Part shown: positions 6,688 through 23,147 of the stretch, one piece after another
Layout of the letters: every line of letters begins with the position of its first letter
How positions within the stretch are numbered: the first letter of the stretch is position 1
Source: Vitreimonas sp.
GTDB lineage: Bacteria; Patescibacteriota; Microgenomatia; UBA1400; PJMF01
DNA length: 44,289 nucleotides
Direction: 5' to 3'
Assembly (NCBI GenBank): GCA_035627515.1
Contig: DASPLQ010000012.1
Coordinates: forward strand, 521,269 to 565,557
The notes under the pieces: generated by a model
What the model was told of the DNA's origin: nothing
The model's input: the letters and a program-made list of their open reading frames with translations, nothing else
The model's database searches: none
Position numbers and translations under genes: made by a program

Positions 6688-7323
6688 ATGTCTCTTGTCA
6701 CTCCTACTCCGTTATATCGCAATATTACCATTGCTGGTTTACCAGGATCAGGCTCGACGACGTTATTGAAAGGTTTGAAGGAAGAGTTGCAGTTCCAGGG
6801 CTGGAAGGGTTTTAGTGGCGGTGAGTTTATGCGTACCTATGCCGCTGAAAAAGGCCTCTATGATGCTTCACAGAACTTACACCATGACGCCACAGTCTAT
6901 ACCGATGATTTTGACCGCCAAGTCGATTTGGGAATGCGTGAGAAGCTGGAAACAGAAGAGAGTTGGATTTTAGAAGCTTGGTTATCTGGATTCATGGCTC
7001 AAAATGTGCCAGGAGTCTTAAAAGTGTTGATGATTTGTAGTGATGACGCTGTGCGGATTGACCGAATTGTAAATCGCGACGTGATCGATGTAGACGAAGC
7101 TAAAAAACATATTCATGAACGCAAAGAGAAAAACCTGGCTAAATGGAGCCGGATGTACGGCGATTTATGGCAAGAATGGGTCGTCAAGCCTGGCAAAGTG
7201 TCTGCCAGTGATCCAATTGATTTTTGGCGCCCAGATCTGTACGATTTAGTGATAGACACGTTTTCCACTAATAAACAGGAAACGTTGCAACTAGTCGTAG
7301 ATGCCATCAAAAAGACGTCTTAA
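6688..7323 (+). CDS. cmk: Cytidylate kinase, archaeal/CPR type (nucleoside monophosphate kinase family)
   Basis: N-terminal ITIAGLPGSGSTT P-loop, SGGEFMR, D..VD, ILEAWLSG and C-terminal YDLVIDT. Confidence 0.75.
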   Translation: MSLVTPTPLYRNITIAGLPGSGSTTLLKGLKEELQFQGWKGFSGGEFMRTYAAEKGLYDASQNLHHDATVYTDDFDRQVDLGMREKLETEESWILEAWLSGFMAQNVPGVLKVLMICSDDAVRIDRIVNRDVIDVDEAKKHIHERKEKNLAKWSRMYGDLWQEWVVKPGKVSASDPIDFWRPDLYDLVIDTFSTNKQETLQLVVDAIKKTS

Positions 7324-8017
7324 ATCAGCACTGCCTTCGCAACGGGTTTCACACCCCGGTGCTCACTCCCAACGTCACATTGCTTTTTTCCCGTTACTTA
7401 CGCTGTGTTTTATTGTCTGGATGATTTATCGGCTACGGTTGGGTTTTCCGGTGTGGTTTGATGAAACAGTGGGTAAAGCCGTCTTTTTTGGTTTGCCAGT
7501 TTGGTTATATGTAGCCATTAGCCAGACAAAAGCCATTATTGATACCTTTAGCGTGGCTAAGGTAAAACGCGGCTTGTTGCTTGGTTTGGCAGTCGGTGGA
7601 CTGTACGGGTTTATGGCTGCAGTTGTGGTTTTGGCTCAAAGTGGCGCTCCAGTCCAAGCCGCACCTCTGTTTGCTCTGGATGAGTTTTGGTGGCAGTTCT
7701 TCTTGGCGCTGATGACGGGCTTTTGGGAAACCTTGTTCTTTTACTGTTGGGTGATGGTGGTCATCCAAGAAAAATTTGTGAACTGGGCACTAGCCAAACA
7801 AGTTGGGTTGGTAGCACTGATCTTTACGCTGTTTCATATTCCTAATGCTGTGATTCGCTATCAAGGCATAGAAATTTTGGCTCAAATTACTGTTTTGTTT
7901 TTATTTGCTCTCGGTCAAGGCTTTGTGTTTGCTCGTCGCCACAATGCTTATACTTTGATTTTGTCTCATGCCATTTGGGGCATGGTGTTATTGGTGCATT
8001 TGAGTAGTTTTAGATAA
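7301..8017 (+). CDS. CPBP/Abi (CAAX-like) intramembrane protease family protein; start uncertain
   Basis: Multi-TM protein with FWETLFF, FTLFHIP and SHAIWG motifs. The listed start overlaps cmk by 23 nt. Confidence 0.7.
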   Translation: MPSKRRLKSALPSQRVSHPGAHSQRHIAFFPLLTLCFIVWMIYRLRLGFPVWFDETVGKAVFFGLPVWLYVAISQTKAIIDTFSVAKVKRGLLLGLAVGGLYGFMAAVVVLAQSGAPVQAAPLFALDEFWWQFFLALMTGFWETLFFYCWVMVVIQEKFVNWALAKQVGLVALIFTLFHIPNAVIRYQGIEILAQITVLFLFALGQGFVFARRHNAYTLILSHAIWGMVLLVHLSSFR

Positions 8018-8331
8018 ATTTCCTCGGGCGTTTTATTTCTCTGTAAGGTGTTTTATTTTTTTGCGGCGTATAGTTTTTTGCCAATAGGTTGGTGGAGGTA
8101 TGTCCGCGAATGGTCTCAAAAAGCTGGTGGCATAAATAGTGCACGATCGTGGCACAAATATGCCACTGTAAAAAAGAGTGCTGTGAGAAAGGGTATCCAA
8201 CGAGAGATGGAGAGATGAAAATAACGGCGCCTCTTTGACACCTTTTTATTATTTTCTTAAAGGTGATGACAAGCTCACCTAATCACCATCACTACAGAAG
8301 TTCCCCTGGACACACGTCATTGAAATGCAAC

Positions 8332-9144
8332 CTACTCTAAGAAGGCCCATCGATAAGCTAAATAGCTTAGACCACCTAAGCCAATTAACCCCATCACCCA
8401 GATCCACCACGGCCACTCAGTTACTTGATGAGCTACGGCTGCAGTAGAAGCAGCAGAAGTGCCAACAGGGGTGCTGGTTGGTGATAAAACGATGTTTTCT
8501 TCACCTAAAATTTCTCCAGTTTCGCTTTCAGAGTTGAGGGAGGTAGTAGTGGCTGTGGTTCTAACGAGCTGATTGGTTCCACCTGCAAGTGGAGTAGGGC
8601 TGGTTGTCAGCTGCGGAGTTGAACTAGGCGAAGAGGAGGAGGTCGGTGAAGAACTGGCAGCCGGACTTGAGTTATTAGCTGGCGTAGGAGACGGGGTTGG
8701 CGAAGGACTAGGTGACGCTGTCGTTGCGGGCACCAAAAATACATCTAAATGTACTAAATCCTGGCACTTGCCCGCTTCACTGCCGGTTTGCCAAGTTGGT
8801 ACTTCATACCTAGTACTATGACGAGTGACAGTAACTGCTGTGGTACCGACGCCACTGAGTTGATAACAGTCATCTTTATAATCATGAGTACTGTAATCAT
8901 GCTCGAGGCTGCCATCACTATTGCGATACGCAAAACAGACTTTAGTAATTTTTCTGCCGTCAGACTGAATATAGCTTTGTCGATTGCTGTCACCCCCGTT
9001 GATATTGGCCACGGTCGGGGTATCAACTGGAGGTCCGCATGGCCCATTGGCAGGGCCACCTACCGCCAACAGAGTGGGTGGTGATATATATAGCACCATT
9101 TGTGTATAAAGGATAAGCATGGTAATAAGGTTCTTATATGTCAT
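8332..9144 (-). CDS. Surface protein with signal peptide, Cys-containing domain, Pro/Ser/Thr linker and C-terminal TM anchor
   Basis: Hydrophobic N-terminus, (SP/TP)n stretch and C-terminal WPWWIWVMGLIGLGGLSYLAYR. TGtTATACT lies 12 nt upstream on the minus strand. Confidence 0.75.
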   Translation of the reverse strand: MTYKNLITMLILYTQMVLYISPPTLLAVGGPANGPCGPPVDTPTVANINGGDSNRQSYIQSDGRKITKVCFAYRNSDGSLEHDYSTHDYKDDCYQLSGVGTTAVTVTRHSTRYEVPTWQTGSEAGKCQDLVHLDVFLVPATTASPSPSPTPSPTPANNSSPAASSSPTSSSSPSSTPQLTTSPTPLAGGTNQLVRTTATTTSLNSESETGEILGEENIVLSPTSTPVGTSAASTAAVAHQVTEWPWWIWVMGLIGLGGLSYLAYRWAFLE

Positions 9145-9229
9145 AGAATTTGGCCAGTATAACAGTCAAAAATTAAGTTTCCAAATTTAAGATTTTTTTA
9201 ATTTTGACTGTTTATAGTACGTTTTAACA

Positions 9230-12200
9230 GTGACACTCAAATACCGCTTGGCAACTATCTCTCGTGTCCAACTTTGGTTAGTAGTTTTAGGCACGCTGAT
9301 AAGTTTGACCGCTGGTGGTTGGTTGCTCACACGCTCCTTTCCTGAACTCAAACAGCGTTTAGCCGGCACAGATGCTCCGGAAGCTATCGACATTCAAGTC
9401 AAACAACACCAAATTCCGTATGTACGGCAAGCGATTACTCCACAAGGGGGCACGATCACCGCTGACCAAACTACTGTCGTGTTCCCCGAAGGATATAGCG
9501 ATCAAAAATTGGTCAATTCGTATCGGGTAGTGAGCACCCCTGAACTAGTAGCCAACCATCAAGTTTCCCAGATGTTTGATTTGAAGGCTCGGACCGAACA
9601 GGGCGTGCCAGTGACTCAATTTAATAAACCCCTGGAAGTGAAGGTTGCTTTAGATGACCAAGTTTTCCGAAAATATCGCCCTGATCAGTTGGCGTTATAC
9701 TTTTTTAATGAAGAGACTAAAAAGTGGGAGAAACTGGCTGATAGCCGATTGGATGTTGATACTAAAACGTTAGTAGCTACTACGACGCACTTTACTGTCT
9801 TTATGGTGGCTGCTGGTGATCCTAATCAAGGTGTCACCCAACCGACTACGCCCTCACTCTTAGTGGATGATAGCTCAGCCACAGGGTTCGCTTACGATGG
9901 TCAAACCGATGATGACCAACCCGCCTATGGTGCCTATGTAGGTAGTGGTTACAACGGCAACGCGCTTTATACCGGTAACTCGATTAACAACACCCCTCAC
10001 AACTGGGCGACGTGGAGTGTAGCCAGTGGTTTAGAAGGTGAAGTAGAAGTCAAAGTCACCATTCCCAATTTGCGCAAACCTCTGACGCGCGGCGCAAAGT
10101 ATATCGTCACCCATGCCGGCGGCCAAACACCGGTGACGGTAGACCAAGAAGCCTATCGTGGCGGCATTGCCTCTCTGGGTACATTTACATTTAATGGCAG
10201 TGGCTCAGTCTATTTGAATGACGTGGTTCCTGAAAAAGGTAGTAACTTTAAATCACACTTAGTTTTTGACGCGGTTAGTTTCGGGGGAGAGTTTGATCCC
10301 AACTTAGATATTACTCCGCCGGAAATTTCAGAAGTGAAGGTCCAGCCCGATAATGGCATGTTACGCTTCCAAGCCAAAGTTACTGATGATCAAAGTGGTG
10401 TTAACACGGTAGCACTTTACTTTGATCCAGATGTTAATGATGGTCAACCTGGAGCCTTTTATGAGATGCAAACGGCAGGTGATGATTATTATTACTTAAG
10501 CTTGCCGTACCAAAAGAACAAAAAATATTCGTACTACATCTTAGCTACCGATAATGCTGGTAACGAACAAATTTGGGATCCTACTTTGGGGTATGTGACT
10601 CGCGGTAGTTTCATGAAGAAACTGGGATACTATCCCGGTTCGCAGTTTGCCTCCAGATATGGGTATCGCTCAAACACCACTCGTTGTAGTAAAGCAGGGA
10701 GTGCTTGTAAAGATGGCACACAGGGAGATGGCGATCCAGTTAACACCCTCAATGGTAACTTAATTGAACAGCAAAAGCTGGTCATTATTCCAGGTCGGCC
10801 AGAACTCGATTTACACCTCACCTATAACAGCCAAGGTGCACAGCTAGGGTTATTTGGTCAGAACTGGATGCATAGTTATAGTTACCACGTTTTAGAAATG
10901 GACAATCCTGATTTTCAAGGAGCATTCGTCCATTATCCTGACGGTAAAGTGGTGACATTTTCAGGGCCAGACTTTACGCCCGAGGCAGGATATTTTGAGA
11001 AGCTGACCAAAACTGGTGCAGGCTATGAATTGAGTTTCCCTGACCTCACGAAAGTTAGTTTTGATGCTGAGGGGGACATCACACGGTGGCAAGACGCGAA
11101 TGGCAATGGTCTCACTTTTAGTTATGGTAAAAAGGACGCCTATACGCTCATGTCGCAAATCAGCACCATCACCAGCGATGGCGGCCGGAGTGTGAGTTTA
11201 GAGTACAGCGACGACGGTTTAGTCGCCAAAGTTGTCTCTCCAGAAAATAAAACGCTAGCCTTTGATTACGATGATGAACACAACTTAGTTGCAATTACTG
11301 ATGGCAATCAAGGGACAACCAATTTTGAGTATGACGATTTACATCGTATTACCAAAAAAATCACGCCAGCCGGTCACGTTGCCTATGTCAATCAATATGA
11401 CGGTGAAGGCCGAGTAACCGAGCAAGTTGCTGGTGTCGCTTATAAGACTACTTTTGCATACAACGGGACTACTACCACTACTACCGATGCTAATAATCAT
11501 CAAACAACCTTTATCTACAATGACAAAGAACTTTTAAGTGAGTATAAAAATGCTCAAAATAACTCAATTACGTATGAGTACACCGATAAAGCCCAAGTGG
11601 CTGCGTATACCGATTTGGGCGGTGGCCGCTTCGAGTTTAGGTATGATGACAAAGGTAATCTGATCTACGAAAAAGATCCTTTAGGTTATGAAGTGACACG
11701 CGAGTTTAATACTACGTTCAATAAACCTACTAAAGAAATCTTCAAACAGAGTGATCATGTCACACAATGGGCCTATGATGCCAAAGGCAACCTGACGCAA
11801 ATCACCAATGCCAAAGGTGATAGCAGTACATTCGAGTACGATAGTTTTGGTCAGTTAACTAAGGCGATTGATTTCAATGGCAATGTCGCTAGCTATACCT
11901 ACACTGTTCAGGGTGATGTAGCTACCACCACCGATGGTGAAGGCAACACCCAACAGCTAGCATATGACGGTTTGGGGAGATTACATCAACTAACGAATGC
12001 CCGCCAGTTTGAGTACACCTATACCTATGATGGCAACGATAACTTGACCCAAGTGGCAGGTCCAGCCAGTTTCTCACTTAAGTATCAATTTGATGCCAAC
12101 AATCGGTTGGTGGCGGAAACCGATGCTAATGGTGGCGTTATTCGTTATAGCTATGATGCCTCAGAAAATCTGACAGAACTGAAAAATCAGCTTGGTTTCA

Positions 12201-15200
12201 CCACCGCTTTTACCTACGGACCAATGAATGAGAAGGTGAGTGAAACCTCACCAGAAGGGCACGTATCTCAGTTCGCCTATGACGAAATTTATAATCTCAC
12301 TTCGGTCAAACAAGCCGTGGGCACACCTCAAGAGATTGAAACCAAATTTGTTTACAATGCTCAGCGGGACAAAACTCAAGTGATTGATCCTGAGGGAAGA
12401 ATTACGGCGTACACTTATGATCCACTCCATCGTTTGACCAAAGAAGTTCGCAATAAAGTCCTTGGCTTAGCAACAGCAGAGCAAAATGTCACAACCGAAT
12501 TTAGGTATAGTCCTAGTGGAGCCTTATTAGAAAAGAAAGATGCCAACGGCAACGTGACCACCCATACATATGATCAGCTTGATCAATTACTGACCATCAC
12601 CGATGCTGAACAACAACTCACAACCTATACCTATGATAAACAAGGCAACGTCATCGAACAAAAAAATCCTCGAGGTTTTGTCACTAAGTATGAGTTCAAC
12701 AAAAACAACCAAGTGGCCAAAATTATCGATGCTCGGTCTGGGGTAACTACTTTTACTTATGATCCAAACAGTAACTTAGCTCAATTAACTGATGCTAATG
12801 CCATCGCCACGCGCTTTGCTTATGACGCACTTGATCGTCGTTCACAACGCATTCAAAATGCCGTTGCTAGTGGTCCAAATGACGCGCAAACCAACGTCAC
12901 CACCAAGTATGCCTATGATCCTCATGGCAACTTAACCGTCCTCACCAACCCAAGAGGTTTTACTACTAATTTTGTGTATGACGCCGCGCATCGCAACACT
13001 AGTATTATCGACGCGCAAAACGCTCAAGCTGGCTTTGAGTATGACCGAGAAAATAACCTCAAAAAGATCACCGACCGCAATGGCCACACTCGTCACTTTA
13101 GTTATGATGCTTTAAATCGAGTCACTAAAGTGCTCAATCCGGAAAATCATGCCGAAGAGTTTGGTTATGACAAAGTGGGTAATACACTCGTTTATATCAA
13201 CCCGCGTGGAATCCAGTTTAAAAAAGCCTATGATCCGTTATATCGCTTGAAAGTGGCTACCGATCCTTATACCAAAACTAAGGAGTATAAGTATGACGCC
13301 ATCGGTAACGTTTTGAGTTTAACCGATGAGAATGGCCACACCGATCAGTATGAATATGACAAAGTGTATCGATTGCGCAAGTTTACTGACGCCGAAGGGA
13401 ATCAGACAGAACATCAATATGACGCCAATAGTAATGTCGTTAAAGTTATTGATGGCGAGAGCAACCCGACCAGCATGGCATATGATGAACTCGACCGCTT
13501 GATTGAGAAAACCAATGCTGAGAACGAAACTGAGAAGTATGCCTATGACAAAACTGGGAACGTCGTCCTCAAAACAGAAGCTGACGGCACCCCTCATCAC
13601 TATACGTATGATCCGCTGTATCGGTTAGCTGAGGTGGCTAATAACTTTCGAACTGGTCAAGCAGCTTCACACGACACCAATGTCACTACTCGCTATCGTT
13701 ACGACGCCAACAGCAACTTAGTTGCACAAGTTAATCCGCTGCAAAATACTACCAGTTTTGAGTATGACTCACTCGATCGGCTCAGCAAAGAGACTAACCC
13801 GCTCGATAGTCAATGGCGCTATCGCTATGACAAAGAGGGGAATGTGACTGAGCGAGTGGACGCCAACGGGGCTGTGACAGCCTACCAATACTATCCTGAC
13901 GATGTCTTAGCTCAAATTCAGTACCCCTCACACCAAGTAAAGTATCAGTATAGTGAAACTAATCACCCAGTGGAGATGGTTGATAACTTAGGCACCACTA
14001 AATGGAGTTATGACAACTTAGATCGCATAGTAGAACAAGTTGATCCGTTTAATCGCAAGCTGGCCTACGAGTACGACCATGTGGGGAACTTAACTAAACT
14101 CACCTATCCTGATGGTCGTGGTTTAGCTCACGCCTACCTTAAAAATGATTGGTTGAAACAATCACAAGGGATTGGCCAAAACTCTGGTGGAGCTGATACC
14201 GTCAAGTACGCCCGCAATAAAGTGGGAGCGCCAGTTAAGGTCGATCATAGTAACTCATCATGGTCACAAATTGCCTATGACAAAGTCTATCGACCGCTGG
14301 AAGTTCATGATCGGCAACAGGGTGGAGGGAATCACTTAATTAGTAAATTTAACTATGAGTACAACGATATTGGTCACATCACCAAACAGGTTGATGAGCA
14401 CGGTTGGCGGCAACCAGCTAAGGTGACCACAAATTATCAATATGATGGTTTGCATCGCCTCACCAACGCGACCACCGATGATAATCAATCCACCCAGTAT
14501 GCCTACGATGCTGCTGGCAACCGCACAGTCCTTAAGGAACAGCTCCATCAAGGTCTCGAGACCAGAACCTATGCCTACAACGCTGCTAACCAATTAACTG
14601 GTATTGATATCCAGTCTCCAATGCCGCCCAATATCGTGGATTATGAATATCAATACGATAAAAATGGCAATCGCACTGATAAATTAATTGCCGACGCTAC
14701 CGGGATTGATCGTGGCGTGGCGTACAACTATGATTATGAAAACCGCTTGACCAAAGCTCAGGATTATCAGGTGGGTGGCCCAGCGCCAACTCCATCACCA
14801 GTGCCAACTCCGACCCCTACGCCAACACCTACCCCGGTGCCATCACCTTCTGCGTCACCAAGTCCTAATCCCAGCTTACAGCCTTCGCCATTGCCAAGCA
14901 TTAGTCCCAGTCCTTCACTTTCACCATGTCCTGGTAATAGTAATGGCAAGAACGATGGCAAAGATCAAAGTGGCGACTGCAACAACGGTGGTGGCAATGA
15001 CAATAAGAAAACCACTGGCACAGTCTTGGGATTAGCGACCGAGGCCAGTCCTTCACCGAGTCTTTCACCTAGTCCCAGTCCTAGTTTAGAGCCTGTCTCT
15101 TCGCCTTCACCCACACCAGAGCCTACCGCTCAACCGACGTTGCAACCCGAGAACTCAGTTATCGCCCAAGCCGCAGAACTCGCGCCGCAAACAACTCAAG

Positions 15201-16804
15201 CACTGGGAGAGCCAACTCGCAACGATTTAGCTCACACCGATCTAGAGTATGACGGCAACGGTCGCCGCTTAGTGTCTACATACTCGCCAGGTAGTAGCCA
15301 AGACTTAAAACGCACCGAGTATTTATTTGATCGCTTAGACCCAGTGGTGGAGTACAGCATGTGGAATGGCCAACGCAACAACTTGGCACGTAACTCAGCT
15401 CAAGACTTATTATTCTTCCAAGAGTTTAAATCTGAACAAGATCCCAACGGTACCATCTATTGGTATCACCACGATGGCGAAGGCAACATTGCCGCGACCA
15501 CCAAGCACAAAGCCCAATCTGATCATACCTATCGTTATGACGAGTATGGTGGCATTCTGCCCGATAATGGTTCTGGTGATCAGCACGGTGGCGGCGCCTC
15601 AGGTTGGATTGCGCCTCACAATCAATACACCCTGACTCAAAAACAGTTTGATGCTAACACTGATCTCTACTACTTCGGTGCTCGCCACTATGACCCTGAA
15701 GTCGGTACTTGGATCACTCAAGACAGCTATCGCGGTCAGCTCAACGATCCTCAAAGTTTACATCGCTACATGTACAACAATGACAGTCCGGTGAATTATC
15801 GAGATTACTATGGGTACTGCTCTGACCCGGCTTTGACTGCTCAGGGTTGTGGTAGCTGGACCCCAGACATTGTGTTTAAAGGAACGCGTATCGCTACGAC
15901 ACCATTCAGGGATTACATGGAAATAAAGAGTAATGAGCAGATTTTTGGCCGAGCTTTAACCAATGCTGACCGTGATGTGTGGTTAGCCAACCAAAAGCTG
16001 CAAGATGACATAAGAACTCGTCAAGCAATGGATCAAGCTATGAGTAAAACATTGGCAGCTCCGGTATTTGATTGTTTGAGATATCAATCATTAGCTGAAA
16101 TGAGAAATAAATATCTGAATATGATAGATGTTAGTCGTAGAGAAGGTCAAAATGCTGAATTAAGAGCACAACAAGATCAACTAACACGCCAAAAGGCTTC
16201 ACAAGCTTATTACTATATTCCTGCTATTGGCGCAGGCTATGCATTTGCAAATGCTTATACAGGAGAGAATGTATTTACGGGTACTTCATACAGTACTAAT
16301 CAACGAATTGGTCAGGTAGGAATAGGAACTACTAATTTTGTAGCAACAGTAGGATTGGCCTATACTGCTCAGGCATCAGTAAGTTATTTGACCACTAACC
16401 CTGTAGCTGCTGGGCAGATTGGAACAGGCACTAGTCTAACTACAAACACATTATGTCAAGGTGATTGTTCAGATGAGGCGGGACAAATTTCAACTGGTAC
16501 AAATGTAGTTTATCGATATGTGGAAAATGGCATCACAAGATATTATGGCATTACCAATGATTTTGCTCGAAGAGCAGGCCAACACTTAACGAATAGAGGT
16601 TGGACAATTGAAAAAATACCTGGCCTTGACCAACTGAGCAGACAAGACGCACGTGCTGTGGAACAAGTACTCATTGAACAAAAAGGATTACCTAACCTTT
16701 ATAATCAAATAAATAGCATTTCCACAAGTAATCCGGTATACTCGTCAGCTATTATTAGAGGAAATGAAATCATTAATACTACTACAGTAGTACCTCCTCC
16801 TTAG
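9230..16804 (+). CDS. RHS/YD-repeat polymorphic toxin (2524 aa) with C-terminal URI/GIY-YIG-fold nuclease tip
   Basis: N-terminal TM/signal, ZU5/UPA-like region (ITPQGG...THFT), golvesin-like beta domain, GDPVNTLNGNL (DUF6531-like), dozens of YD repeats, core YYFGARHYDP...PVNYRDYYG, and tip VVYRY...YYGITNDFARRAGQH...RAVEQVLI...LYNQINSI. Confidence 0.92.
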   Translation: MTLKYRLATISRVQLWLVVLGTLISLTAGGWLLTRSFPELKQRLAGTDAPEAIDIQVKQHQIPYVRQAITPQGGTITADQTTVVFPEGYSDQKLVNSYRVVSTPELVANHQVSQMFDLKARTEQGVPVTQFNKPLEVKVALDDQVFRKYRPDQLALYFFNEETKKWEKLADSRLDVDTKTLVATTTHFTVFMVAAGDPNQGVTQPTTPSLLVDDSSATGFAYDGQTDDDQPAYGAYVGSGYNGNALYTGNSINNTPHNWATWSVASGLEGEVEVKVTIPNLRKPLTRGAKYIVTHAGGQTPVTVDQEAYRGGIASLGTFTFNGSGSVYLNDVVPEKGSNFKSHLVFDAVSFGGEFDPNLDITPPEISEVKVQPDNGMLRFQAKVTDDQSGVNTVALYFDPDVNDGQPGAFYEMQTAGDDYYYLSLPYQKNKKYSYYILATDNAGNEQIWDPTLGYVTRGSFMKKLGYYPGSQFASRYGYRSNTTRCSKAGSACKDGTQGDGDPVNTLNGNLIEQQKLVIIPGRPELDLHLTYNSQGAQLGLFGQNWMHSYSYHVLEMDNPDFQGAFVHYPDGKVVTFSGPDFTPEAGYFEKLTKTGAGYELSFPDLTKVSFDAEGDITRWQDANGNGLTFSYGKKDAYTLMSQISTITSDGGRSVSLEYSDDGLVAKVVSPENKTLAFDYDDEHNLVAITDGNQGTTNFEYDDLHRITKKITPAGHVAYVNQYDGEGRVTEQVAGVAYKTTFAYNGTTTTTTDANNHQTTFIYNDKELLSEYKNAQNNSITYEYTDKAQVAAYTDLGGGRFEFRYDDKGNLIYEKDPLGYEVTREFNTTFNKPTKEIFKQSDHVTQWAYDAKGNLTQITNAKGDSSTFEYDSFGQLTKAIDFNGNVASYTYTVQGDVATTTDGEGNTQQLAYDGLGRLHQLTNARQFEYTYTYDGNDNLTQVAGPASFSLKYQFDANNRLVAETDANGGVIRYSYDASENLTELKNQLGFTTAFTYGPMNEKVSETSPEGHVSQFAYDEIYNLTSVKQAVGTPQEIETKFVYNAQRDKTQVIDPEGRITAYTYDPLHRLTKEVRNKVLGLATAEQNVTTEFRYSPSGALLEKKDANGNVTTHTYDQLDQLLTITDAEQQLTTYTYDKQGNVIEQKNPRGFVTKYEFNKNNQVAKIIDARSGVTTFTYDPNSNLAQLTDANAIATRFAYDALDRRSQRIQNAVASGPNDAQTNVTTKYAYDPHGNLTVLTNPRGFTTNFVYDAAHRNTSIIDAQNAQAGFEYDRENNLKKITDRNGHTRHFSYDALNRVTKVLNPENHAEEFGYDKVGNTLVYINPRGIQFKKAYDPLYRLKVATDPYTKTKEYKYDAIGNVLSLTDENGHTDQYEYDKVYRLRKFTDAEGNQTEHQYDANSNVVKVIDGESNPTSMAYDELDRLIEKTNAENETEKYAYDKTGNVVLKTEADGTPHHYTYDPLYRLAEVANNFRTGQAASHDTNVTTRYRYDANSNLVAQVNPLQNTTSFEYDSLDRLSKETNPLDSQWRYRYDKEGNVTERVDANGAVTAYQYYPDDVLAQIQYPSHQVKYQYSETNHPVEMVDNLGTTKWSYDNLDRIVEQVDPFNRKLAYEYDHVGNLTKLTYPDGRGLAHAYLKNDWLKQSQGIGQNSGGADTVKYARNKVGAPVKVDHSNSSWSQIAYDKVYRPLEVHDRQQGGGNHLISKFNYEYNDIGHITKQVDEHGWRQPAKVTTNYQYDGLHRLTNATTDDNQSTQYAYDAAGNRTVLKEQLHQGLETRTYAYNAANQLTGIDIQSPMPPNIVDYEYQYDKNGNRTDKLIADATGIDRGVAYNYDYENRLTKAQDYQVGGPAPTPSPVPTPTPTPTPTPVPSPSASPSPNPSLQPSPLPSISPSPSLSPCPGNSNGKNDGKDQSGDCNNGGGNDNKKTTGTVLGLATEASPSPSLSPSPSPSLEPVSSPSPTPEPTAQPTLQPENSVIAQAAELAPQTTQALGEPTRNDLAHTDLEYDGNGRRLVSTYSPGSSQDLKRTEYLFDRLDPVVEYSMWNGQRNNLARNSAQDLLFFQEFKSEQDPNGTIYWYHHDGEGNIAATTKHKAQSDHTYRYDEYGGILPDNGSGDQHGGGASGWIAPHNQYTLTQKQFDANTDLYYFGARHYDPEVGTWITQDSYRGQLNDPQSLHRYMYNNDSPVNYRDYYGYCSDPALTAQGCGSWTPDIVFKGTRIATTPFRDYMEIKSNEQIFGRALTNADRDVWLANQKLQDDIRTRQAMDQAMSKTLAAPVFDCLRYQSLAEMRNKYLNMIDVSRREGQNAELRAQQDQLTRQKASQAYYYIPAIGAGYAFANAYTGENVFTGTSYSTNQRIGQVGIGTTNFVATVGLAYTAQASVSYLTTNPVAAGQIGTGTSLTTNTLCQGDCSDEAGQISTGTNVVYRYVENGITRYYGITNDFARRAGQHLTNRGWTIEKIPGLDQLSRQDARAVEQVLIEQKGLPNLYNQINSISTSNPVYSSAIIRGNEIINTTTVVPPP

Positions 16805-16809
16805 ACTTA

Positions 16810-17763
16810 ATGAAACAGGCTAAAAATATTAAACTTGGCGATATTTTTGAAATACCTTTACCAAATGGTAAAAAGGCATATGGTCATTATGTGTGGCATG
16901 ATGATAAAACAGGGACACTCATACAAGTTTTTAAACAAACTCTTGATCAGGATGAAGTTTTTAGCTTAAGCAACTTTAATACTAAAGAATATTTATTTCC
17001 TGCAATTTATACTGTTTTAAAGCCAACTCTTAATAGTGGTATGTGGAAAATAGTTGAAAACTATCCGGCAACTAATTTTTCCTATCCGGGCTTTGTTGCT
17101 ACTTTTTACAATGAAAAAGGTGTTGCAGGGTTGTGGTTCTTATGGGATGGAGATAAGTTTGTAAGAATTGGAAACACTTTACAAGATGAATATAAGAAGC
17201 TAGAGTTCTATGCTGTTTATTCTCCTATTAAGGTTGTTGAAAGAATTGTGAATGGTGTAAAACCTTACAAAGATCTAATTGAAAAAAACCATATGGAAAT
17301 GCCAGAGGTTACTCCTCTAAAAAACAAAAACGAATCTATTTTTGGCAATGTTAAATCAATTAATTTTAATAATGATGAAGCATTAGATTTTATAAATGAT
17401 TTTGTTAAAAAGCCAACAATTTCTTTTTTTACCAATTTATTCAATGATCCTCCCGAAGAATATTTAGATAATACTAATTCCCAAAGAATTTTAACTGCTG
17501 TTGAGATGTTGGCTTATTTAGTTGATGAAAATGATCAGAATCTGCCCGAAGCTGTGCGTTTCCCTTTAAAAAAGTTGGCACTAAAGATAAATAGAAATGA
17601 GCTTCAAAGTTTAGCTAAAGTTTCAAAAGAATATATTACAAAGATTTTAGATAATTCCGAGTTAAAAGAATCCTGGAAGGAATCAAAACTTTATAATGTT
17701 TGGATTAAAGAAAACAAGAGTCTTTTATTGAGATTAGAAAATTATTTAAAAAGTGAAGCTTAA
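16810..17763 (+). CDS. Cognate immunity protein: Imm26-like N-terminal domain fused to DUF4259-like C-terminal domain
   Basis: Starts 5 nt after the toxin stop. N-terminal GDIFEIPLPNGKKAYG; C-terminal FNNDEALDF...SELKESW. Confidence 0.7.
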   Translation: MKQAKNIKLGDIFEIPLPNGKKAYGHYVWHDDKTGTLIQVFKQTLDQDEVFSLSNFNTKEYLFPAIYTVLKPTLNSGMWKIVENYPATNFSYPGFVATFYNEKGVAGLWFLWDGDKFVRIGNTLQDEYKKLEFYAVYSPIKVVERIVNGVKPYKDLIEKNHMEMPEVTPLKNKNESIFGNVKSINFNNDEALDFINDFVKKPTISFFTNLFNDPPEEYLDNTNSQRILTAVEMLAYLVDENDQNLPEAVRFPLKKLALKINRNELQSLAKVSKEYITKILDNSELKESWKESKLYNVWIKENKSLLLRLENYLKSEA

Positions 17764-17807
17764 TCTTTAAAGGTGATTTAAATAAACTACAGCAACACCA
17801 TTAAAAA

Positions 17808-18581
17808 ATGCCTGATAAATTTGAGTTAGTACTCTTGCAGTACACGCTTTCCAATTTAAATGAGTTAATTATTAATTTTAACAAAGTCTTAATTAATGAG
17901 TTTCAAGTTCTATTTGGTGAAATAAAAAAAGTGCAGATTATTGATAAAACAAGTAATAAAACTTGGAAAACAAATTACCCTATCTTAGAAATAATTTCAC
18001 CCAAATTTGAATGGCACCTTATTTTTGAGAACCAAAACTCAGTTGACTTTTATTTTGATAAGCAGGCAGAGAAAATTTCATTATTCCTGGAAATTAAAGA
18101 ATCAAAAAATGTATCTCTATCATTGATGATAAACTTAATTAAGAAACTTACTTCAATTTTTGATTTTACTAATCTATCCGTAGAGAACCTTACTAAAAGT
18201 CCTCAAGTTTGGCAACAGTTGTCAAAAATAAATCCTACACTTTATAACCCAATAAATTTCTTCTTTGTAGGGGGAACAAAATGGTTACAGATATATCCTC
18301 GCAAAGAGATTAGAGATGGGTTTTATTTGCCGTTGCCTGACGATTTTTATTTAAGTATTCCAGCTGATCATATTGAAAAGGTTAACAATGAATCAATTTT
18401 AGTTTGCAAAAATAATGACCCTTTTGCTTCTGTGGATGAACAAGTAGAAAAAACAAAAAAAATAGTGGATTATTATTTTCAAAATTTGAGTGAACTAGAG
18501 TTATGGGGTGAAGTTAAGTGGAGTCCTAATTGGCGAAAAGACTACCAACACTTCTTGCTGTCAAAGGGATATGAAATATGA
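17808..18581 (+). CDS. Hypothetical protein, putative immunity protein
   Basis: 257-aa AT-rich ORF within the co-oriented array after the toxin. Confidence 0.55.
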   Translation: MPDKFELVLLQYTLSNLNELIINFNKVLINEFQVLFGEIKKVQIIDKTSNKTWKTNYPILEIISPKFEWHLIFENQNSVDFYFDKQAEKISLFLEIKESKNVSLSLMINLIKKLTSIFDFTNLSVENLTKSPQVWQQLSKINPTLYNPINFFFVGGTKWLQIYPRKEIRDGFYLPLPDDFYLSIPADHIEKVNNESILVCKNNDPFASVDEQVEKTKKIVDYYFQNLSELELWGEVKWSPNWRKDYQHFLLSKGYEI

Positions 18582-18620
18582 GGTCAGAAAATACATACTA
18601 TTTAAAGATGAATTGTTCAC

Positions 18621-18998
18621 ATGCCATCAAAAATTGAACCTGACTTTTTTTTAGCTTCTAGCGAGGGATATGATTTAGAGGAGCCTAAAAAATGTTACAA
18701 ACTTAGGCGAGTAAGTAATGAGAACAGAGATGACATGTTGTTGGTCAAAGTAGAACCTCCCTTGGTTGGTCAAGGTTATGGTTTGGGAGGAAAAGATGTT
18801 GATACGTTGCTTATTATTCCTCGGCATGTAGGAGCGTCTTTATTTCCAATTAATGAGTGGCCACTTTATGTACATGTAGCTTTGGTTCCTTTGGACAGAA
18901 TTAATCAGAACACTTTTTCCAAAGAGGAGATTAAGCCCATTGCTTGGGCAGAACTATATCCTACCTGGGAATCAGCAAAGTCTAAATCTATTGCGTAA
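18621..18998 (+). CDS. Hypothetical protein, putative immunity protein
   Basis: 125-aa ORF in the array with RHVGASLFPINEWPLYVHV, resembling small proteins of polymorphic toxin loci. Confidence 0.55.
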   Translation: MPSKIEPDFFLASSEGYDLEEPKKCYKLRRVSNENRDDMLLVKVEPPLVGQGYGLGGKDVDTLLIIPRHVGASLFPINEWPLYVHVALVPLDRINQNTFSKEEIKPIAWAELYPTWESAKSKSIA

Positions 18999-19003
18999 AG
19001 ATA

Positions 19004-19582
19004 ATGAAATACCAATTGTTATCCCCACCGCCTGTTTGGAAAAACCTTATTTATGCTTCAAAAGAAGAAGGTAAGGAATTTTACAAATGGTTTCTAGATG
19101 TTAAAGAAGAGCGCCTTAAAACCCTTGAAGGTGTTGTAAAGTCTACTGAAGGATATGAAAAGTGGGAAGCTGATTTTACCCCTCAATCTTTAGATATTTT
19201 GGGCAAATGGTTTAAACAAGTTGCTGAGAAAAGAGCAAGAACTCCAGAAGAAATTGAAATAGAAAGATCAAAATTGAGGCCTCCTTTTTTAGACTTAAAA
19301 ATAAATGATTGGACCTTGAGCTCTAAAACAGTATCTCTTTGTTTTGATATAGGTGTTTATTTTGGTGAGGTGTTTGTAAGAAATTTTTCGGAATTGAAGT
19401 GGAATCTTCTTCAAAAAAACAAATTTATTGGTAATAATGAGCCAATGATAGAAGGCTTTGGAAAAGTATATTTTTCACCCACACATATGATGAAAATCCA
19501 AGCATATAAAATTTTAGAAAAAAGAGATGATGCAGCTAACTTCACTAAGCTGTATAACACATGGATAAAACATATCACTTAA
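19004..19582 (+). CDS. Putative immunity protein (DUF3806-like)
   Basis: FTPQSLDILGKWF and DIGVYFGEVF motifs; position in the array. Confidence 0.55.
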   Translation: MKYQLLSPPPVWKNLIYASKEEGKEFYKWFLDVKEERLKTLEGVVKSTEGYEKWEADFTPQSLDILGKWFKQVAEKRARTPEEIEIERSKLRPPFLDLKINDWTLSSKTVSLCFDIGVYFGEVFVRNFSELKWNLLQKNKFIGNNEPMIEGFGKVYFSPTHMMKIQAYKILEKRDDAANFTKLYNTWIKHIT

Positions 19583-19598
19583 TAAGAAAGTTCAATAT

Positions 19599-19973
19599 AT
19601 GAATAAGAAAAGTGAAATTTCCCTCGAAACCGGGAAGAAAAAGGTTGTCTATATAATTATTGGAATGCTTATTTTTGACTTTAGCAGTCAACTGTTGTCT
19701 GTAGCTGTAGGTGATCACTCAACCACAGATGTAGTTAGGCTAATTCTGACTTTAGTTTTGGTAAACTTTTTATATAAAGGCCACAATTGGGCAAGAATAA
19801 TTACCATGCTTTTATATTTCTTAACATTCCTAGGAGCTTTGGGAATGTTAGTAGCAGTTCCAGACTCTGTCGTAAAGATAGCTTCAGTAGTACTTTTGGT
19901 ATGGGCGAGTGCAGTTATCTATGTATTAGGTTACATGCCTGATGTAAAACAATATTTTCATCGAAACAAATGA
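19599..19973 (+). CDS. Small 4-TM membrane protein in the immunity array
   Basis: Four hydrophobic segments with LYKGHNWAR; overlaps the next gene (ATGA). Confidence 0.6.
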   Translation: MNKKSEISLETGKKKVVYIIIGMLIFDFSSQLLSVAVGDHSTTDVVRLILTLVLVNFLYKGHNWARIITMLLYFLTFLGALGMLVAVPDSVVKIASVVLLVWASAVIYVLGYMPDVKQYFHRNK

Positions 19974-20284
19974 GTGTATATATCGAAGAAATTATTAAAG
20001 TCGCTAAAAAAATTCTTAACGAAGAAATAAATATAATTGAAGGTTCACGCTTAATTTCATCTTTAAGACATAATACTCAGTTTCCTGATAGCACTATTTT
20101 TTATGCCTTTAGAGCAGTAGATTCAGAGACTGAAAACTTTTTGATTGAAGAAGCGAAAAAGTTTGCTGACAAAGAATATTTGAAAAAGTTAGATAGTGAA
20201 AAAGAAATTTATACTAAAGAAATGAATGAAATTATTTTTGATGCAAGTCAGAAATTAATCAAAGAACTTACTAAGTTAAAATAA
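19970..20284 (+). CDS. Putative immunity protein (DUF2489-like)
   Basis: IIEGSRLISSLRH...AVDSETE pattern. Confidence 0.5.
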   Translation: MSVYIEEIIKVAKKILNEEINIIEGSRLISSLRHNTQFPDSTIFYAFRAVDSETENFLIEEAKKFADKEYLKKLDSEKEIYTKEMNEIIFDASQKLIKELTKLK

Positions 20285-20293
20285 TAAATTTGA

Positions 20294-20629
20294 ATGCCTT
20301 GGTCAGAAATAATAAAAGAAATATTATCAGTAGGAGTTCCTTTACATAACAAAGGAGTTGATAATTGGGCACTTACAAAAGAACAGGCACTTTTAGCAGC
20401 AGAGCAATTAATGAACTTGAAAATATCAATTTTAGGTGGTGATGTTTACGAGCTGAGTGATGGTGAAATAATACCAACTTATGATAACTGGTATACGCAA
20501 CGGCTGATAAATGAAAATAAAGAGGAATACCTTTTAAGAACCATTTCTGAGACTCGTAAGTATATAGCGAATTATAAAAGTGCAAGTGATAAACAGATTT
20601 ATTTTGTTTTGGTACCTAAATTTAATTGA
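20294..20629 (+). CDS. Imm40-family immunity protein
   Basis: WALTKEQAL...ILGGDVY...YDNWY; the GGD motif is characteristic of Imm40. Confidence 0.75.
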   Translation: MPWSEIIKEILSVGVPLHNKGVDNWALTKEQALLAAEQLMNLKISILGGDVYELSDGEIIPTYDNWYTQRLINENKEEYLLRTISETRKYIANYKSASDKQIYFVLVPKFN

Positions 20630-21096
20630 TATTGGCAACTATGACATCCAAAGAGTTCTACAGTGAAATCAATAAAACCATTGGAAATGATTTAAAAACT
20701 CTAGGGTTTAAAAAGAGTAAAAGTGGAATGTTAAGTTGGTATAAACCTTATAAGGATAAGTATTTTACTTTTTGGTTTCAGGTTAATAGATGGGGATGGA
20801 GTGATAACGAAGGTTCAAGTTTTTGTATTGAATTTCAATTTGCCGATAACTTTTTACCCGGCCACGGTAAAGCTAGAGAAAGAATAATTAAGCTTTTAGA
20901 TAAAGACAAATTAATTGAAGCTCATGAAATACAAACCAGAGTACACACTAAAATTGGCTTTATAAGTTCGGAAAATGACTTTTCAGGAAAAGAATATACC
21001 TGGTTTAAGTACTTTGATGAAGAAGATGCTCAAACTTGGGCAAAATTTTTTTTAAGAGCACTGCCTAGCTTAGTTAATAGATTTTTTATTAATTAG
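20626..21096 (+). CDS. Putative immunity protein (DUF4304-like); start may be ATG 20641
   Basis: LKTLGFKK...FWFQVNRW...SFCIEF pattern; last gene of the AT-rich array. Confidence 0.5.
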   Translation: MILATMTSKEFYSEINKTIGNDLKTLGFKKSKSGMLSWYKPYKDKYFTFWFQVNRWGWSDNEGSSFCIEFQFADNFLPGHGKARERIIKLLDKDKLIEAHEIQTRVHTKIGFISSENDFSGKEYTWFKYFDEEDAQTWAKFFLRALPSLVNRFFIN

Positions 21097-21148
21097 GGTT
21101 AATCTTTCCGTTATTAAAAAAACATTAACTCATCAGGCAATTTGCAAC

Positions 21149-21176
21149 TTGTCTCACCACTATTTTTTTGTATACT
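21149..21176 (+). promoter_or_regulatory. sigma70-like promoter
   Basis: TTGTCT-N16-TATACT upstream of ATG 21206. Confidence 0.45.
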
Positions 21177-21205
21177 ATTTTGAGAATTAAGTCTCGGGAT
21201 TTTTT

Positions 21206-21949
21206 ATGATAATTGTTTGGGCGGGATATGGATGGCTAGTGCCTGTAATCGTAATAGCAAGTTTGTTTGTTTCATTTTTGCTTGATAATATTTTGAAAAC
21301 TAACTTTAATAGCTTTTTTCCTGAAGAGTTATTTTTAGGAATTGCTTTGTTACTGAGCGCAGCTGGTACCTACTGGCTGAACGAATATTTCAACAAAAGC
21401 CAGGGTCAAGAAATCACTCATCCTCAAACAGGTAAAACTATCAAAGTGTTACCTAACCATACCTTGTACTTTGTGCCTATTAAATATTGGGCGGGTTTGT
21501 TGTTATTAGGAGCATTATATTTTGCAGCTATTGCTTTGACCGGTGGTTCCTCATTTTTAAGTAGCTCAGAAATCGAAACTGAAAACACTGTCTTAGTGAA
21601 TGAAAATGATCCGCTCATAGCAGAAGCTGAAAGAACGGCTCAAGCCACGCTGAAAGAGTTCATCGGGCGTTTAAATACTAAAGATCCTAAGTTTACTTAT
21701 TCGATCAAAACCGTGATTGGTGAAGCAGAACACATTTGGGTAGAAGTCTCAAACTATGAAGCTGGGAGTTTTAATGGTGTTATCGCCAATGAACCATTTT
21801 ATGAAAAATATAAATTGGGCGATCCTATTAAAGTTAAAGAAACTGAAGTCGAAGACTGGATTATTCATGATGAAAATTTCAAGACGGTTGCTGGAGGGTT
21901 TAGCATAGAAGCTTTACAAGAAGCAAAAAAAACGAATCAAAAAAAGTAA
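21206..21949 (+). CDS. Membrane protein with C-terminal DUF2314 (YegJ-like) domain
   Basis: N-terminal 3-TM module MIIVWAGYGWL...HTLYFVPIKYW; C-terminal EHIWV...GVIANEP...VEDW...GGFS. Confidence 0.7.
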   Translation: MIIVWAGYGWLVPVIVIASLFVSFLLDNILKTNFNSFFPEELFLGIALLLSAAGTYWLNEYFNKSQGQEITHPQTGKTIKVLPNHTLYFVPIKYWAGLLLLGALYFAAIALTGGSSFLSSSEIETENTVLVNENDPLIAEAERTAQATLKEFIGRLNTKDPKFTYSIKTVIGEAEHIWVEVSNYEAGSFNGVIANEPFYEKYKLGDPIKVKETEVEDWIIHDENFKTVAGGFSIEALQEAKKTNQKK

Positions 21950-21961
21950 CCCTAAATAAGT

Positions 21962-22378
21962 ATGGACACAGCTTCAGCCTCGTTTCCCATCTATAGAAAT
22001 AGTAACTTTGTTATCGCGCTGAATATCCTTAGTTTTTTTATCCCTTTCTTTATGGTAGTGCCGTTACTGATTATGATTACTGGTCCTGTTTATGATGCCC
22101 AAACGAAAGTGAAGTGGGCTAAGACCGAGACAGTGGGAGTGATGTGTTGGTTGGCTTTGATCTTAATTATTTGGCTATGGTTTGCCTTAAGTGGTTGGCA
22201 AGGTGTTGATTTTTATTTAGTGGGGCGTACCTTTGCGCACTTTTTGATGGCTATGGGTGTAACAGTGGTAATAGATGAGCAACTGAAGCGATCTTCTCGG
22301 TGGCTCAGGGTACTCGTAGGTGCGATCGTATTTTTGGTGGTATTTATCCTGACAGTGGTTCTGGCTGCGATGGGGTAA
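21962..22378 (+). CDS. Hypothetical 4-TM membrane protein
   Basis: 138-aa hydrophobic ORF, co-oriented and 12 nt after the previous gene. Confidence 0.65.
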   Translation: MDTASASFPIYRNSNFVIALNILSFFIPFFMVVPLLIMITGPVYDAQTKVKWAKTETVGVMCWLALILIIWLWFALSGWQGVDFYLVGRTFAHFLMAMGVTVVIDEQLKRSSRWLRVLVGAIVFLVVFILTVVLAAMG

Positions 22379-22446
22379 ATTACATTTTTTAACCAAAATT
22401 TAATTTTTATCGATTGATCGCTACATCTAGTCTTACATCCCATAAT

Positions 22447-22475
22447 TTGACTTCTGGGCACTATTTTTATATACT
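22447..22475 (+). promoter_or_regulatory. sigma70 promoter
   Basis: TTGACT-N17-TATACT, 13 nt before TTG 22489. Confidence 0.7.
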
Positions 22476-22488
22476 TACTCGTTGGTGA

Positions 22489-23055
22489 TTGAAATTTATG
22501 TGGAAACACACTCGGTTGCTGCTCTCAACTACGGCATTGCTTTCTGGAGGTTTAATTCTCTGGGTGTCACTGTCGTCAGTGCCCACCGTTTTCTCTGCTA
22601 ATGGTACTACTGAAGCCAGCAAACGCAGCGTATACATGGAAGGGGAGATTCTTCCTGACCATTTAGCATATCCAGTTTTGATGGCTGTAGATCGCGTCAA
22701 ACTCGAGACGGCTGCCCCTCACGATCAAGTCTTTATGAAAGTTGAGTATGGCAATCGCCGTATTGAGTACGCTCAAGAACTGATTGATAAAGACAATACA
22801 CCTGTCGCCCTGTCCACCCTCACCAAAGCCCTCAAGTATCTTCACAAAGCCGGTCAAACCGCCCTCGAAATCGAAGCTCCTGACAACACTAAGCAGTACG
22901 TTATTAAAACCCTCGACTATCACCACCAAACTATCGAAAAAATGAAAAGTCGTTTTCCTGACCCTGATCGAGTCGTTCTTGATCAACTTCAGAATGAAAA
23001 CTTGATTATGAAAGCTCAACTGCACGACAGTATGAGTTCTTCTCTAGAGCGCTAA
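22489..23055 (+). CDS. Secreted helical protein, DUF5667-like
   Basis: Signal/TM segment followed by ILPDHLAYPVLMAVDRVKL. Confidence 0.6.
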   Translation: MKFMWKHTRLLLSTTALLSGGLILWVSLSSVPTVFSANGTTEASKRSVYMEGEILPDHLAYPVLMAVDRVKLETAAPHDQVFMKVEYGNRRIEYAQELIDKDNTPVALSTLTKALKYLHKAGQTALEIEAPDNTKQYVIKTLDYHHQTIEKMKSRFPDPDRVVLDQLQNENLIMKAQLHDSMSSSLER

Positions 23056-23147
23056 ATTCGAACTGTGACTGATACAGTTTGCACTGCTTTTTAGCGTTGA
23101 CAGCCTTCCGTTCAGTGTGCGATTCTTAATACCCTGCGATCACCAAA

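Follow-up and report, generated by a model that had tools for sequence, protein, structure and literature searches.

Heterogeneous polyimmunity loci were described in 2012 (Zhang, de Souza, Anantharaman, Iyer, and Aravind; PMC3482391), and extended loci, with at least four genes, were found in that work only in proteobacteria, bacteroidetes, firmicutes, and actinobacteria. Acquired interbacterial defense (AID) clusters have been described in gut Bacteroidales (Ross et al. 2019, bioRxiv 10.1101/471110), an Rhs gene with a poly-immunity cluster has been reported for the vgrG6 cluster of Stenotrophomonas (bioRxiv 10.64898/2026.07.13.738213), and the soil Saccharibacterium T. rhizospherense carries an RHS toxin of ~2500 aa with a single neighboring immunity gene (Starr et al. 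2018, PMC6031116). In the literature that we searched, we found no paper on extended arrays of immunity genes from the Candidate Phyla Radiation (CPR). Here we analyze a 44,289-nt stretch of contig DASPLQ010000012.1 (the window, whose first letter is position 1), in which the gene for an RHS polymorphic toxin is followed on the same strand by a compact series of AT-rich open reading frames (ORF1–ORF9; Table 1). Our favored reading, to which we assign a probability of about 0.78, is that this series is a heterogeneous polyimmunity locus behind the RHS toxin, on an island of ~14.4 kb in a Patescibacteria genome. In the best-supported composition of the locus, a single cognate immunity gene is joined by two or more probable orphans, by members of two other recognized immunity families, and by four units assigned by position only.

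Table 1. Positions of the island and its genes within the window, with strand and principal features.
Feature	Coordinates	Strand	Description
Lineage-specific island	8018..22488	.	~14.4 kb, between the CAAX-protease gene and the DUF5667 gene; delimited by synteny
Divergent 270-aa gene	8332..9144	-	Left end of the island; absent from seven relatives
RHS toxin body	9230..15817	+	DUF6531, Golvesin_C-like domain, and 20 RHS repeats; core ends ...NYRDYYGY (Pfam, translation)
RHS C-terminal region	15818..16804	+	Pre-toxin segment and predicted Tox-URI1 (GIY-YIG-fold) nuclease tip at ~16472-16804
ORF1	16810..17763	+	Imm26 domain (residues 1 to ~160) fused to DUF4259 (185-299)
ORF2	17808..18581	+	257 aa, cytoplasmic; lowest-GC stretch of the array; immunity role by position
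ORF3	18621..18998	+	Predicted orphan immunity protein; family without a Pfam or NCBIfam model; partner is the 'FRVWG...GGLPE' tip
ORF4	19004..19582	+	Predicted orphan immunity protein; large family without a Pfam or NCBIfam model; partner is a PD-(D/E)xK-like RHS tip
ORF5	19599..19973	+	124 aa, multi-pass membrane protein; 3-4 transmembrane segments (hydropathy)
ORF6	19970..20284	+	104 aa; sub-threshold DUF2489 match; role by position
ORF7	20294..20629	+	Imm40 family immunity protein
ORF8	20626..21096	+	DUF4304 protein; immunity role by position only
ORF9	21206..21949	+	N-terminal transmembrane helices and DUF2314 (Imm34); membrane-anchored; last AT-rich gene
ORF10	21962..22378	+	138 aa, four transmembrane segments; island-specific, host-like composition

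An AT-rich array behind a single RHS toxin

The sequence-only reading of this DNA, made from the letters and a list of open reading frames, had proposed a polyimmunity array of eight tightly packed, co-oriented genes behind one toxin. Coordinates and gaps bore out these eight plus-strand ORFs, with intervals of 5, 44, 39, 5, 16, −4, 9, and −4 bp from the end of the RHS gene through ORF8. The AT-rich block, however, contains nine genes, as the DUF2314/Imm34 gene ORF9 had been overlooked; all nine are co-oriented, every gap is ≤109 bp, and the minus-strand ORFs of the region are all ≤70 aa. The chance expectation of a 257-codon open frame, calculated from base composition for DNA of 27–30% GC, is ~1e-10.

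GC content was 0.24–0.40 over positions 16800–21600 compared to 0.42–0.51 in the remaining window. At third codon positions, the GC fraction (GC3) of the RHS body was host-like, at 0.44 compared to 0.44–0.53 for flanking genes, whereas it was 0.25 in the RHS C-terminal region, 0.19–0.32 across ORF1–ORF9, and 0.47 in ORF10, which follows them. The GC3 drop from 0.44 to 0.25 falls at the junction of RHS core and tip near 15818, in agreement with the earlier claim that the AT-rich switch begins around the toxin tip, and the block ended after the ninth gene. The tip and ORF1–ORF9 share an AT-rich signature unlike that of the RHS body, which points to exchange of tip/immunity modules by recombination, and the locus offers a clean example of an RHS core/tip compositional break.

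The array has two of the features by which polyimmunity loci are recognized, namely at least four tandem co-oriented genes and structurally unrelated members. All-against-all BLASTP revealed no paralogy among the array proteins, their Pfam families all differ, and profile comparison by hhalign gave probabilities of ~1% for the ORF4 family with the C-terminal half of ORF1 and with ORF2, so that a relationship between ORF2 and the ORF4 family, which we had considered, was rejected. The absence of orphan toxin tips and cassette repeats, reported by the sequence-only reading, held up in tblastn, BLASTP, and repeat scans: no orphan tip, RHS-core fragment, or repeated junction occurs anywhere in 16805–23100, tblastn with the whole RHS protein found no RHS remnant there apart from one chance-level high-scoring segment pair (E 0.4), and repeat families in the region are confined to the YD repeats within the RHS gene. 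Scans for promoters and terminators gave no useful signal; shuffled sequences contained more promoter-like sites than the actual sequence did.

The RHS protein is 2524 aa long. Its closest relatives are Chloroflexi RHS proteins (33–50% identity over the best-matching segments) that have different tips and, behind them, only one or two small ORFs on the same strand, after which the coding strand switches; thus, the nine-gene tail is an expansion and not the norm for this RHS clade. The last 110 residues matched Pfam GIY-YIG below threshold (18.7 bits compared to a cut-off of 22.6; E 0.0022), and a PDB sequence search with the tip returned nothing convincing. Four further tips (L205–L208) were obtained from a metagenome scan with an alignment of two tips, those of the window and of Rhizobium brockwellii. 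The window tip is 45–63% identical to the tips of L177 and L205–L208 over the full six-sequence alignment and 47–68% identical over the best BLAST segments. Across the six-tip alignment, residues Y14, Y24-x-G26, R34, E64, and N78 do not vary, and five of the tips have R at position 61. This agrees with the published Tox-URI1 signature, Y, YxG, R, [RK]xxE, N (Zhang et al. 2012, PMC3482391). The RHS tip carries this signature and is a predicted Tox-URI1 DNase of the GIY-YIG fold.

ORF1, which starts 5 bp after the Tox-URI1 tip, matched Imm26 (PF15428; 37.8 bits, cut-off 23.3) and DUF4259 (51.3 bits, cut-off 22.8). In a tblastn search of plasmids with ORF1, an Imm26-like gene was found on a Rhizobium brockwellii plasmid, 2 bp after the gene for a hemagglutinin-repeat protein whose C-terminus is 48% identical to the window tip over 99 residues (E 2e-21). 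An Imm26-like homologue of the N-terminal half of ORF1 lies 0–12 bp after the tip at all four of the loci with downstream sequence (L177, L205, L207, and L208). In an alignment of seven Imm26 sequences, D11 and R145 are invariant, which fits the published signature of the family, and Imm26 is listed as a Tox-URI1 partner on both RHS and filamentous haemagglutinin scaffolds (Zhang et al. 2012, PMC3482391). Because homologous tips are followed by an Imm26-like homologue at four other loci, conserved tip–immunity pairing shows ORF1 to be the cognate immunity gene, with binding of the tip by its product a prediction from that pairing. At L207, two tandem Imm26-like paralogues (767-1222 and 1318-1779) follow one Tox-URI1 tip, a small homogeneous duplication.

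DUF4259 is absent from all Imm26-like homologues at these four loci, indicating that ORF1 is a locus-specific fusion; it resembles the 'polyimmunity proteins' of PMC3482391. Nothing related to the DUF4259 half was found in plasmids, and a PDB sequence search with ORF1 yielded nothing useful. ORF1 (17683-17709) and ORF4 (19544-19570) share the C-terminal octamer KLYN(V/T)WIK. A relationship between the DUF4259 half and the ORF4 family was rejected at an hhalign probability of 0.9%, and the shared octamer is attributed to chance.

Probable orphan immunity families and the remaining array genes

ORF3 belongs to a family of small proteins, some of whose other members pair with a specific toxin tip. 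We found 62 homologues (41–63% identity), nearly all of 119–127 aa and all lacking a Pfam family. When species-representative genomes were scanned, ORF3 homologues appeared at 22 loci, and the family's loci carry the labels of at least eight phyla; the labels include Alpha-, Beta-, Gamma-, and Deltaproteobacteria, Verrucomicrobiota, Bacteroidota, Acidobacteriota, Planctomycetota, Elusimicrobia, and Armatimonadota. ORF3 itself is ~55% identical to proteins of distant phyla. At eight loci drawn from several phyla (L173, L180, L181, L183, L184, L188, L191, and L200), the ORF directly upstream of the ORF3 homologue ends in one conserved tip of ~95 aa, which is 46–73% identical between the loci, is always followed there by the ORF3-family gene, and reads ...FRVWG..GRSWTTVDPRT..NYR..GLP.QN.GRF...PLHGN.GGLPE..IPNP.... 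(the FRVWG tip). The tip-bearing proteins are mostly of the RHS type, the longest reaching 2661 aa or more, and one has a PT-TG pre-toxin domain; no Pfam or NCBIfam model covers the tip. A degraded remnant of it is present at L172, and other ORF3 homologues stand alone, belong to an array of small co-oriented ORFs, or share an array with Imm52, Imm27, and an RHS protein. The FRVWG tip is not encoded in the 44-kb window; thus, ORF3 is a predicted orphan immunity gene here. An AlphaFold2 model of ORF3, built from the family alignment, was mostly beta with a predicted local distance difference test score (pLDDT) of 87 and had no PDB match at E ≤ 0.001 by Foldseek.

The ORF4 family is larger, with 923 cluster representatives at E ≤ 1e-3 and 481 at E ≤ 1e-10 in an exhaustive HMMER search. 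Its members have no strong Pfam match, although 8 of 92 weakly touch DUF6278 and one touches WapI. At four loci of Acinetobacter guillouiae, in an array that includes Imm44, the ORF4 homologue overlaps the end of an RHS C-terminal ORF by 4 bp; at L202/L203, it lies 8 bp after a gene for a 661-aa RHS/YD-shell protein; and in a Bacillota metagenome-assembled genome (MAG) and at L204, homologues belong to arrays that also contain YD-shell tip fragments, Imm27, and an RHS gene. L164 carries two tandem ORF4 paralogues. The tips that precede the ORF4 homologue in Acinetobacter and at L202 are 41% identical over 147 aa (E 3e-22) and have in common the motif 'KIGSTG.IGE...RYVD.LV..IA.ESKVG', although the two sequences come from Acinetobacter guillouiae and an unrelated metagenome contig; the shared tip occupies the C-terminal ~150 aa of L166 8982-10004 and of L202 6007-7992. 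No Pfam or NCBIfam model matched this tip, and its absence from the 44-kb window makes ORF4 a predicted orphan immunity gene. The AlphaFold2 model of ORF4, again from the family alignment, was alpha+beta with pLDDT 96.5 and a predicted TM-score (pTM) of 0.92. Foldseek found no PDB match for it at E ≤ 0.001, and a PDB sequence search with the ORF4 profile found nothing useful; the best sub-significant Foldseek match of the ORF3 and ORF4 models was 3hlz (BT_1490), with a probability of 0.77 and a TM-score of 0.44.

Two further genes belong to recognized immunity families. ORF7 matched Imm40 (PF15569; 37.3 bits, cut-off 25), shares 48.6% identity with annotated Imm40 genes of Leptospira plasmids, and retains the GGD, F, and W signature residues of the family, whose published partner is the Ntox19 RNase (PMC3482391). 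ORF9 matched DUF2314/Imm34 (PF10077; 47.6 bits, cut-off 22), has the ExxW motif as 'EHIW', and has a GC3 of 0.32; Imm34, 'also known as DUF2314', is reported from heterogeneous polyimmunity loci as a fusion with transmembrane helices (PMC3482391). For the remaining genes, family evidence was sparser. ORF8 scored just above the DUF4304 cut-off (27.6 compared to 23.2 bits), with no relatives in plasmids or metagenome contigs and nothing useful from a PDB sequence search. ORF6 matched DUF2489 (PF10675) at 22.3 bits, under the cut-off of 27, and had no match in plasmids. ORF2 lacks transmembrane segments and had no match in Pfam, NCBIfam, PHROGs, or PADLOC, and the hydropathy of ORF5 makes it a candidate for immunity to a membrane-acting toxin.

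These results sort the family assignments of the sequence-only reading. Imm26 and DUF4259 in ORF1, Imm40 in ORF7, and DUF4304 in ORF8 all exceeded their Pfam cut-offs. The DUF2489 match that it noted in ORF6 exists at a score too low for membership, and its DUF3806-like gene has no counterpart, as no ORF matched that family, even at E ≤ 10 for ORF2–ORF5. Four array ORFs (ORF2–ORF5), rather than three, are without any Pfam match; their proposed status as new immunity families is upheld for ORF3 and ORF4 and does not extend to ORF2 and ORF5, which have no detectable homologue. The suggested search for upstream partner toxins in other genomes succeeded for ORF1, ORF3, and ORF4. The proposal was to fall if homologues never lay next to toxins and had housekeeping or phage functions; ORF3 and ORF4 homologues adjoin RHS genes, and no array ORF matched a PHROG. 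The central idea of a polyimmunity array behind a single toxin is therefore retained, with ORF1 as the cognate gene, ORF3 and ORF4 as predicted orphans, ORF7 as Imm40, and ORF9 as Imm34, and evidence for immunity from family or neighborhood covers these five of the nine genes.

In the mechanism that we propose, the RHS protein would enclose and deliver its C-terminal Tox-URI1 DNase, and ORF1, via its Imm26 domain, would bind and block this DNase in the producer cell and its kin. ORF2–ORF9 are most likely co-transcribed, and each may stoichiometrically inhibit a different incoming toxin domain, one for which the cell has no gene of its own. ORF3 would counter the FRVWG RHS tip, ORF4 the PD-(D/E)xK-like RHS tip, and ORF7 Ntox19-type RNases; ORF9 and ORF5 would act at the membrane; and ORF2, ORF6, ORF8, and the DUF4259 half of ORF1 would counter further partners. 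Tip/immunity modules would be exchanged by recombination at the RHS core boundary, as at other rhs loci.

Several points weigh against the polyimmunity reading. The neutralizing role of the array genes is predicted from sequence and neighborhood, and ORF3, ORF4, and ORF7 are orphans only if their partner toxins are not encoded elsewhere in the genome, with the ORF3 and ORF4 tips checked over the 44-kb window. When 5.8 billion protein clusters were searched by word index, ORF2 and ORF5 each found only themselves. A Pfam tally of 118 neighbors of ORF3 and ORF4 homologues recovered Imm27, Imm52, SseB_C, ComJ, and RHS, and DUF4304, DUF4259, and DUF2489 were absent from it; ORF8, the DUF4259 half of ORF1, and ORF6 are assigned to immunity by position only. 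The enzymatic labels of the two partner tips are motif readings: the spacing of R, S-T, and E suggests that the FRVWG tip is ADP-ribosyltransferase-like, and 'RYVD...ESKVG' is reminiscent of PD-(D/E)xK nucleases. The locus is also present in one public sequencing run only, a soil metagenome.

The island, its host, and alternative origins

Using NrdR as an anchor, we gathered the orthologous regions of relatives and mapped all proteins of the window onto them. The kinase, CAAX-protease, DUF5667, NrdR, and NrdJ genes are contiguous in all seven related Patescibacteria loci (L084 and L086–L091), and the genes of 8332-22378 (the 270-aa gene, the RHS gene, and ORF1–ORF10) had no match in any of the seven. 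Because these relatives are contiguous across the site without the island genes, 8018-22488 is a lineage-specific island, which amounts to ~1% of its source contig of 1,409,795 bases, in a Patescibacteria (CPR) genome of ~1.4 Mb. Scans within the window detected no integrase, transposase, tRNA, Rfam RNA, or credible flanking repeat in the island; a 28-nt similarity between 8013-8040 and 21652-21679 (75% identity) was considered as a boundary repeat and rejected as not credible. The host assignment is supported by the GroEL protein of the window, which is 85% identical to that of Patescibacteria BroJett032, 72% to that of a Microgenomates MAG, 61% to that of a Saccharibacteria MAG, and ≤58% to everything beyond the radiation. 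Two nearer GroEL sequences come from MAGs labelled Pseudomonadales, and these are small contigs that match no true Pseudomonadales.

How the array was assembled bears on what it records. It may be the residue of successive tip replacements at one RHS gene, in which every new tip–immunity module pushed its predecessor downstream and old tips were later deleted while their immunity genes were kept; it would then record toxins that the lineage or the donors of the island once made instead of those that the organism meets, an account of origin that is compatible with continued protection. We regard this history as unlikely, although the array follows the RHS gene immediately and is as AT-rich as the current tip, RHS proteins carry the partner tips of ORF3 and ORF4 at other loci, and sequential displacement is documented to generate immunity arrays in Vibrio cholerae (PMC5361080). 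Displaced modules usually keep orphan tips, core fragments, or repeated junctions, of which this region has none, and the published Ntox19 partners of Imm40 use several secretion routes and not RHS specifically. The composition that tip and array share, together with the RHS-borne partners of ORF3 and ORF4, fits serial tip replacement; the complete absence of tip and core remnants fits clean deletions or independent accretion.

Arrival of the RHS gene and a ready-made array in one transfer, with ORF2–ORF9 of no current selective value in this reduced genome, appears improbable. In its favor, the entire 14.4-kb block is missing in the seven relatives, and the similarity of ORF3 to proteins of distant phyla implies a fairly recent one. 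A single donor and a single event are nevertheless argued against by the difference in composition between the RHS body (GC3 0.44) and the tip with its array (0.19–0.32), nine intact and tightly packed frames are maintained in a type of genome that sheds unused DNA, and an integrase, a tRNA, and a flanking repeat are all absent. The sequence-only reading had gone further than polyimmunity and described the array as a library recording the toxins that this organism meets; this is one possibility, as the array may equally be a residue of earlier tips or may have arrived preassembled. That the genes are unrelated AT-rich phage remnants, defense genes, or housekeeping genes merely adjoining an RHS toxin and one immunity gene is highly improbable, because, although ORF2, ORF5, ORF6, ORF8, and the DUF4259 domain lack a demonstrated toxin association, family or neighborhood evidence for ORF3, ORF4, ORF7, and ORF9 largely refutes it for four of the nine genes, no array ORF matched phage or anti-phage families (PHROGs and PADLOC), and every gene has the same orientation, with no gap above 109 bp.

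Discussions of CPR bacteria usually cast them as minimal-genome parasites. An island that combines a complete toxin with polyimmunity suggests that they are also participants in contact-dependent bacterial warfare and have to withstand it, which bears on the coexistence of epibionts with their hosts and competitors. Our broader interpretation is tentative, at well under even odds: this would be the first extended (nine-gene) CPR polyimmunity locus; its bearer, probably an epibiotic ultra-small bacterium that devotes ~1% of its genome to an RHS DNase and antidotes, would be regularly exposed to contact-delivered toxins of distant neighbors or of the bacterium that hosts it; together with their tips, ORF3 and ORF4 would represent two new, widespread toxin–immunity families without a PDB fold match; and ORF2 and ORF5 would be lineage-specific immunity proteins. 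The analysis also provides two concrete toxin–immunity pairings beyond Pfam and NCBIfam, FRVWG tip with ORF3 family and PD-(D/E)xK-like tip with ORF4 family, in which the immunity proteins have confident predicted structures without a PDB neighbor.

Two island genes flank the toxin and its array. The 270-aa gene at the left end had no Pfam match above threshold (a chance-level match to TSKS scored 15.4 bits compared to a cut-off of 27) and no PADLOC match; this island gene is a candidate accessory or surface partner of the RHS protein. ORF10 has no counterpart at the site in the seven relatives and no family match in scans of Pfam, NCBIfam, and PHROGs. Its composition is unlike that of the nine AT-rich genes before it, and its membership in the array is uncertain; like the RHS body, it could belong to an older portion of the island.

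Two observations concern genes outside the island. A 1227-aa membrane protein with M23 peptidase and L,D-transpeptidase domains (2878-6561) is a second lineage-specific insertion: at L084, L086, and L091, the HEPN-like gene (window 2286-2828) and the kinase gene (window 6688-7323) are within ~25–110 bp of each other, and nothing there matches the 1227-aa protein. At L089 (2725-5817), the NrdJ match is split into residues 6-116 and 115-736, ~900 bp apart, and at L087 (2718-4754), NrdJ residues 430-514 have no match, which suggests an intein or other nrdJ insertion that the window gene lacks.

Comparison with described systems

The concept of a polyimmunity locus is known (2012, 2019), and the additions made here are a new host lineage and two pairings not modeled by Pfam or NCBIfam. 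Compared to the polyimmunity loci described in 2012, the present locus is alike in being a co-oriented tandem array of structurally unrelated genes, in containing Imm26 and Imm34/DUF2314, both listed there, plus Imm40, and in carrying a multi-domain fusion like a 'polyimmunity protein' (ORF1). It differs in that the array is attached to a complete toxin gene instead of standing alone beside a recombinase, in its Patescibacteria host, and in that about half of its genes have no Pfam family or belong to DUFs without a known toxin link.

AID clusters are likewise horizontally acquired arrays of orphan immunity genes directed against the toxins of other strains or species. However, they reside on mobile elements with recombinases and counter type VI secretion system (T6SS) effectors, whereas here the cognate toxin heads the array and there is no integrase or other mobility gene and no T6SS context. 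Rhs loci with orphan tip/immunity modules or with a poly-immunity cluster (E. coli, Salmonella, and Serratia; the vgrG6 cluster of Stenotrophomonas) also combine a compositionally distinct, AT-rich tip with several immunity genes behind one Rhs gene. Unlike those loci, the one analyzed here has no orphan tips or core fragments, no PAAR, VgrG, or T6SS, and a monoderm-type, ultra-small host.

T. rhizospherense is likewise a soil CPR bacterium whose RHS polymorphic toxin, of ~2500 aa, has an immunity gene next to it. In the locus described here, by contrast, nine genes follow the toxin, and two of them are orphans as judged over the 44-kb window.

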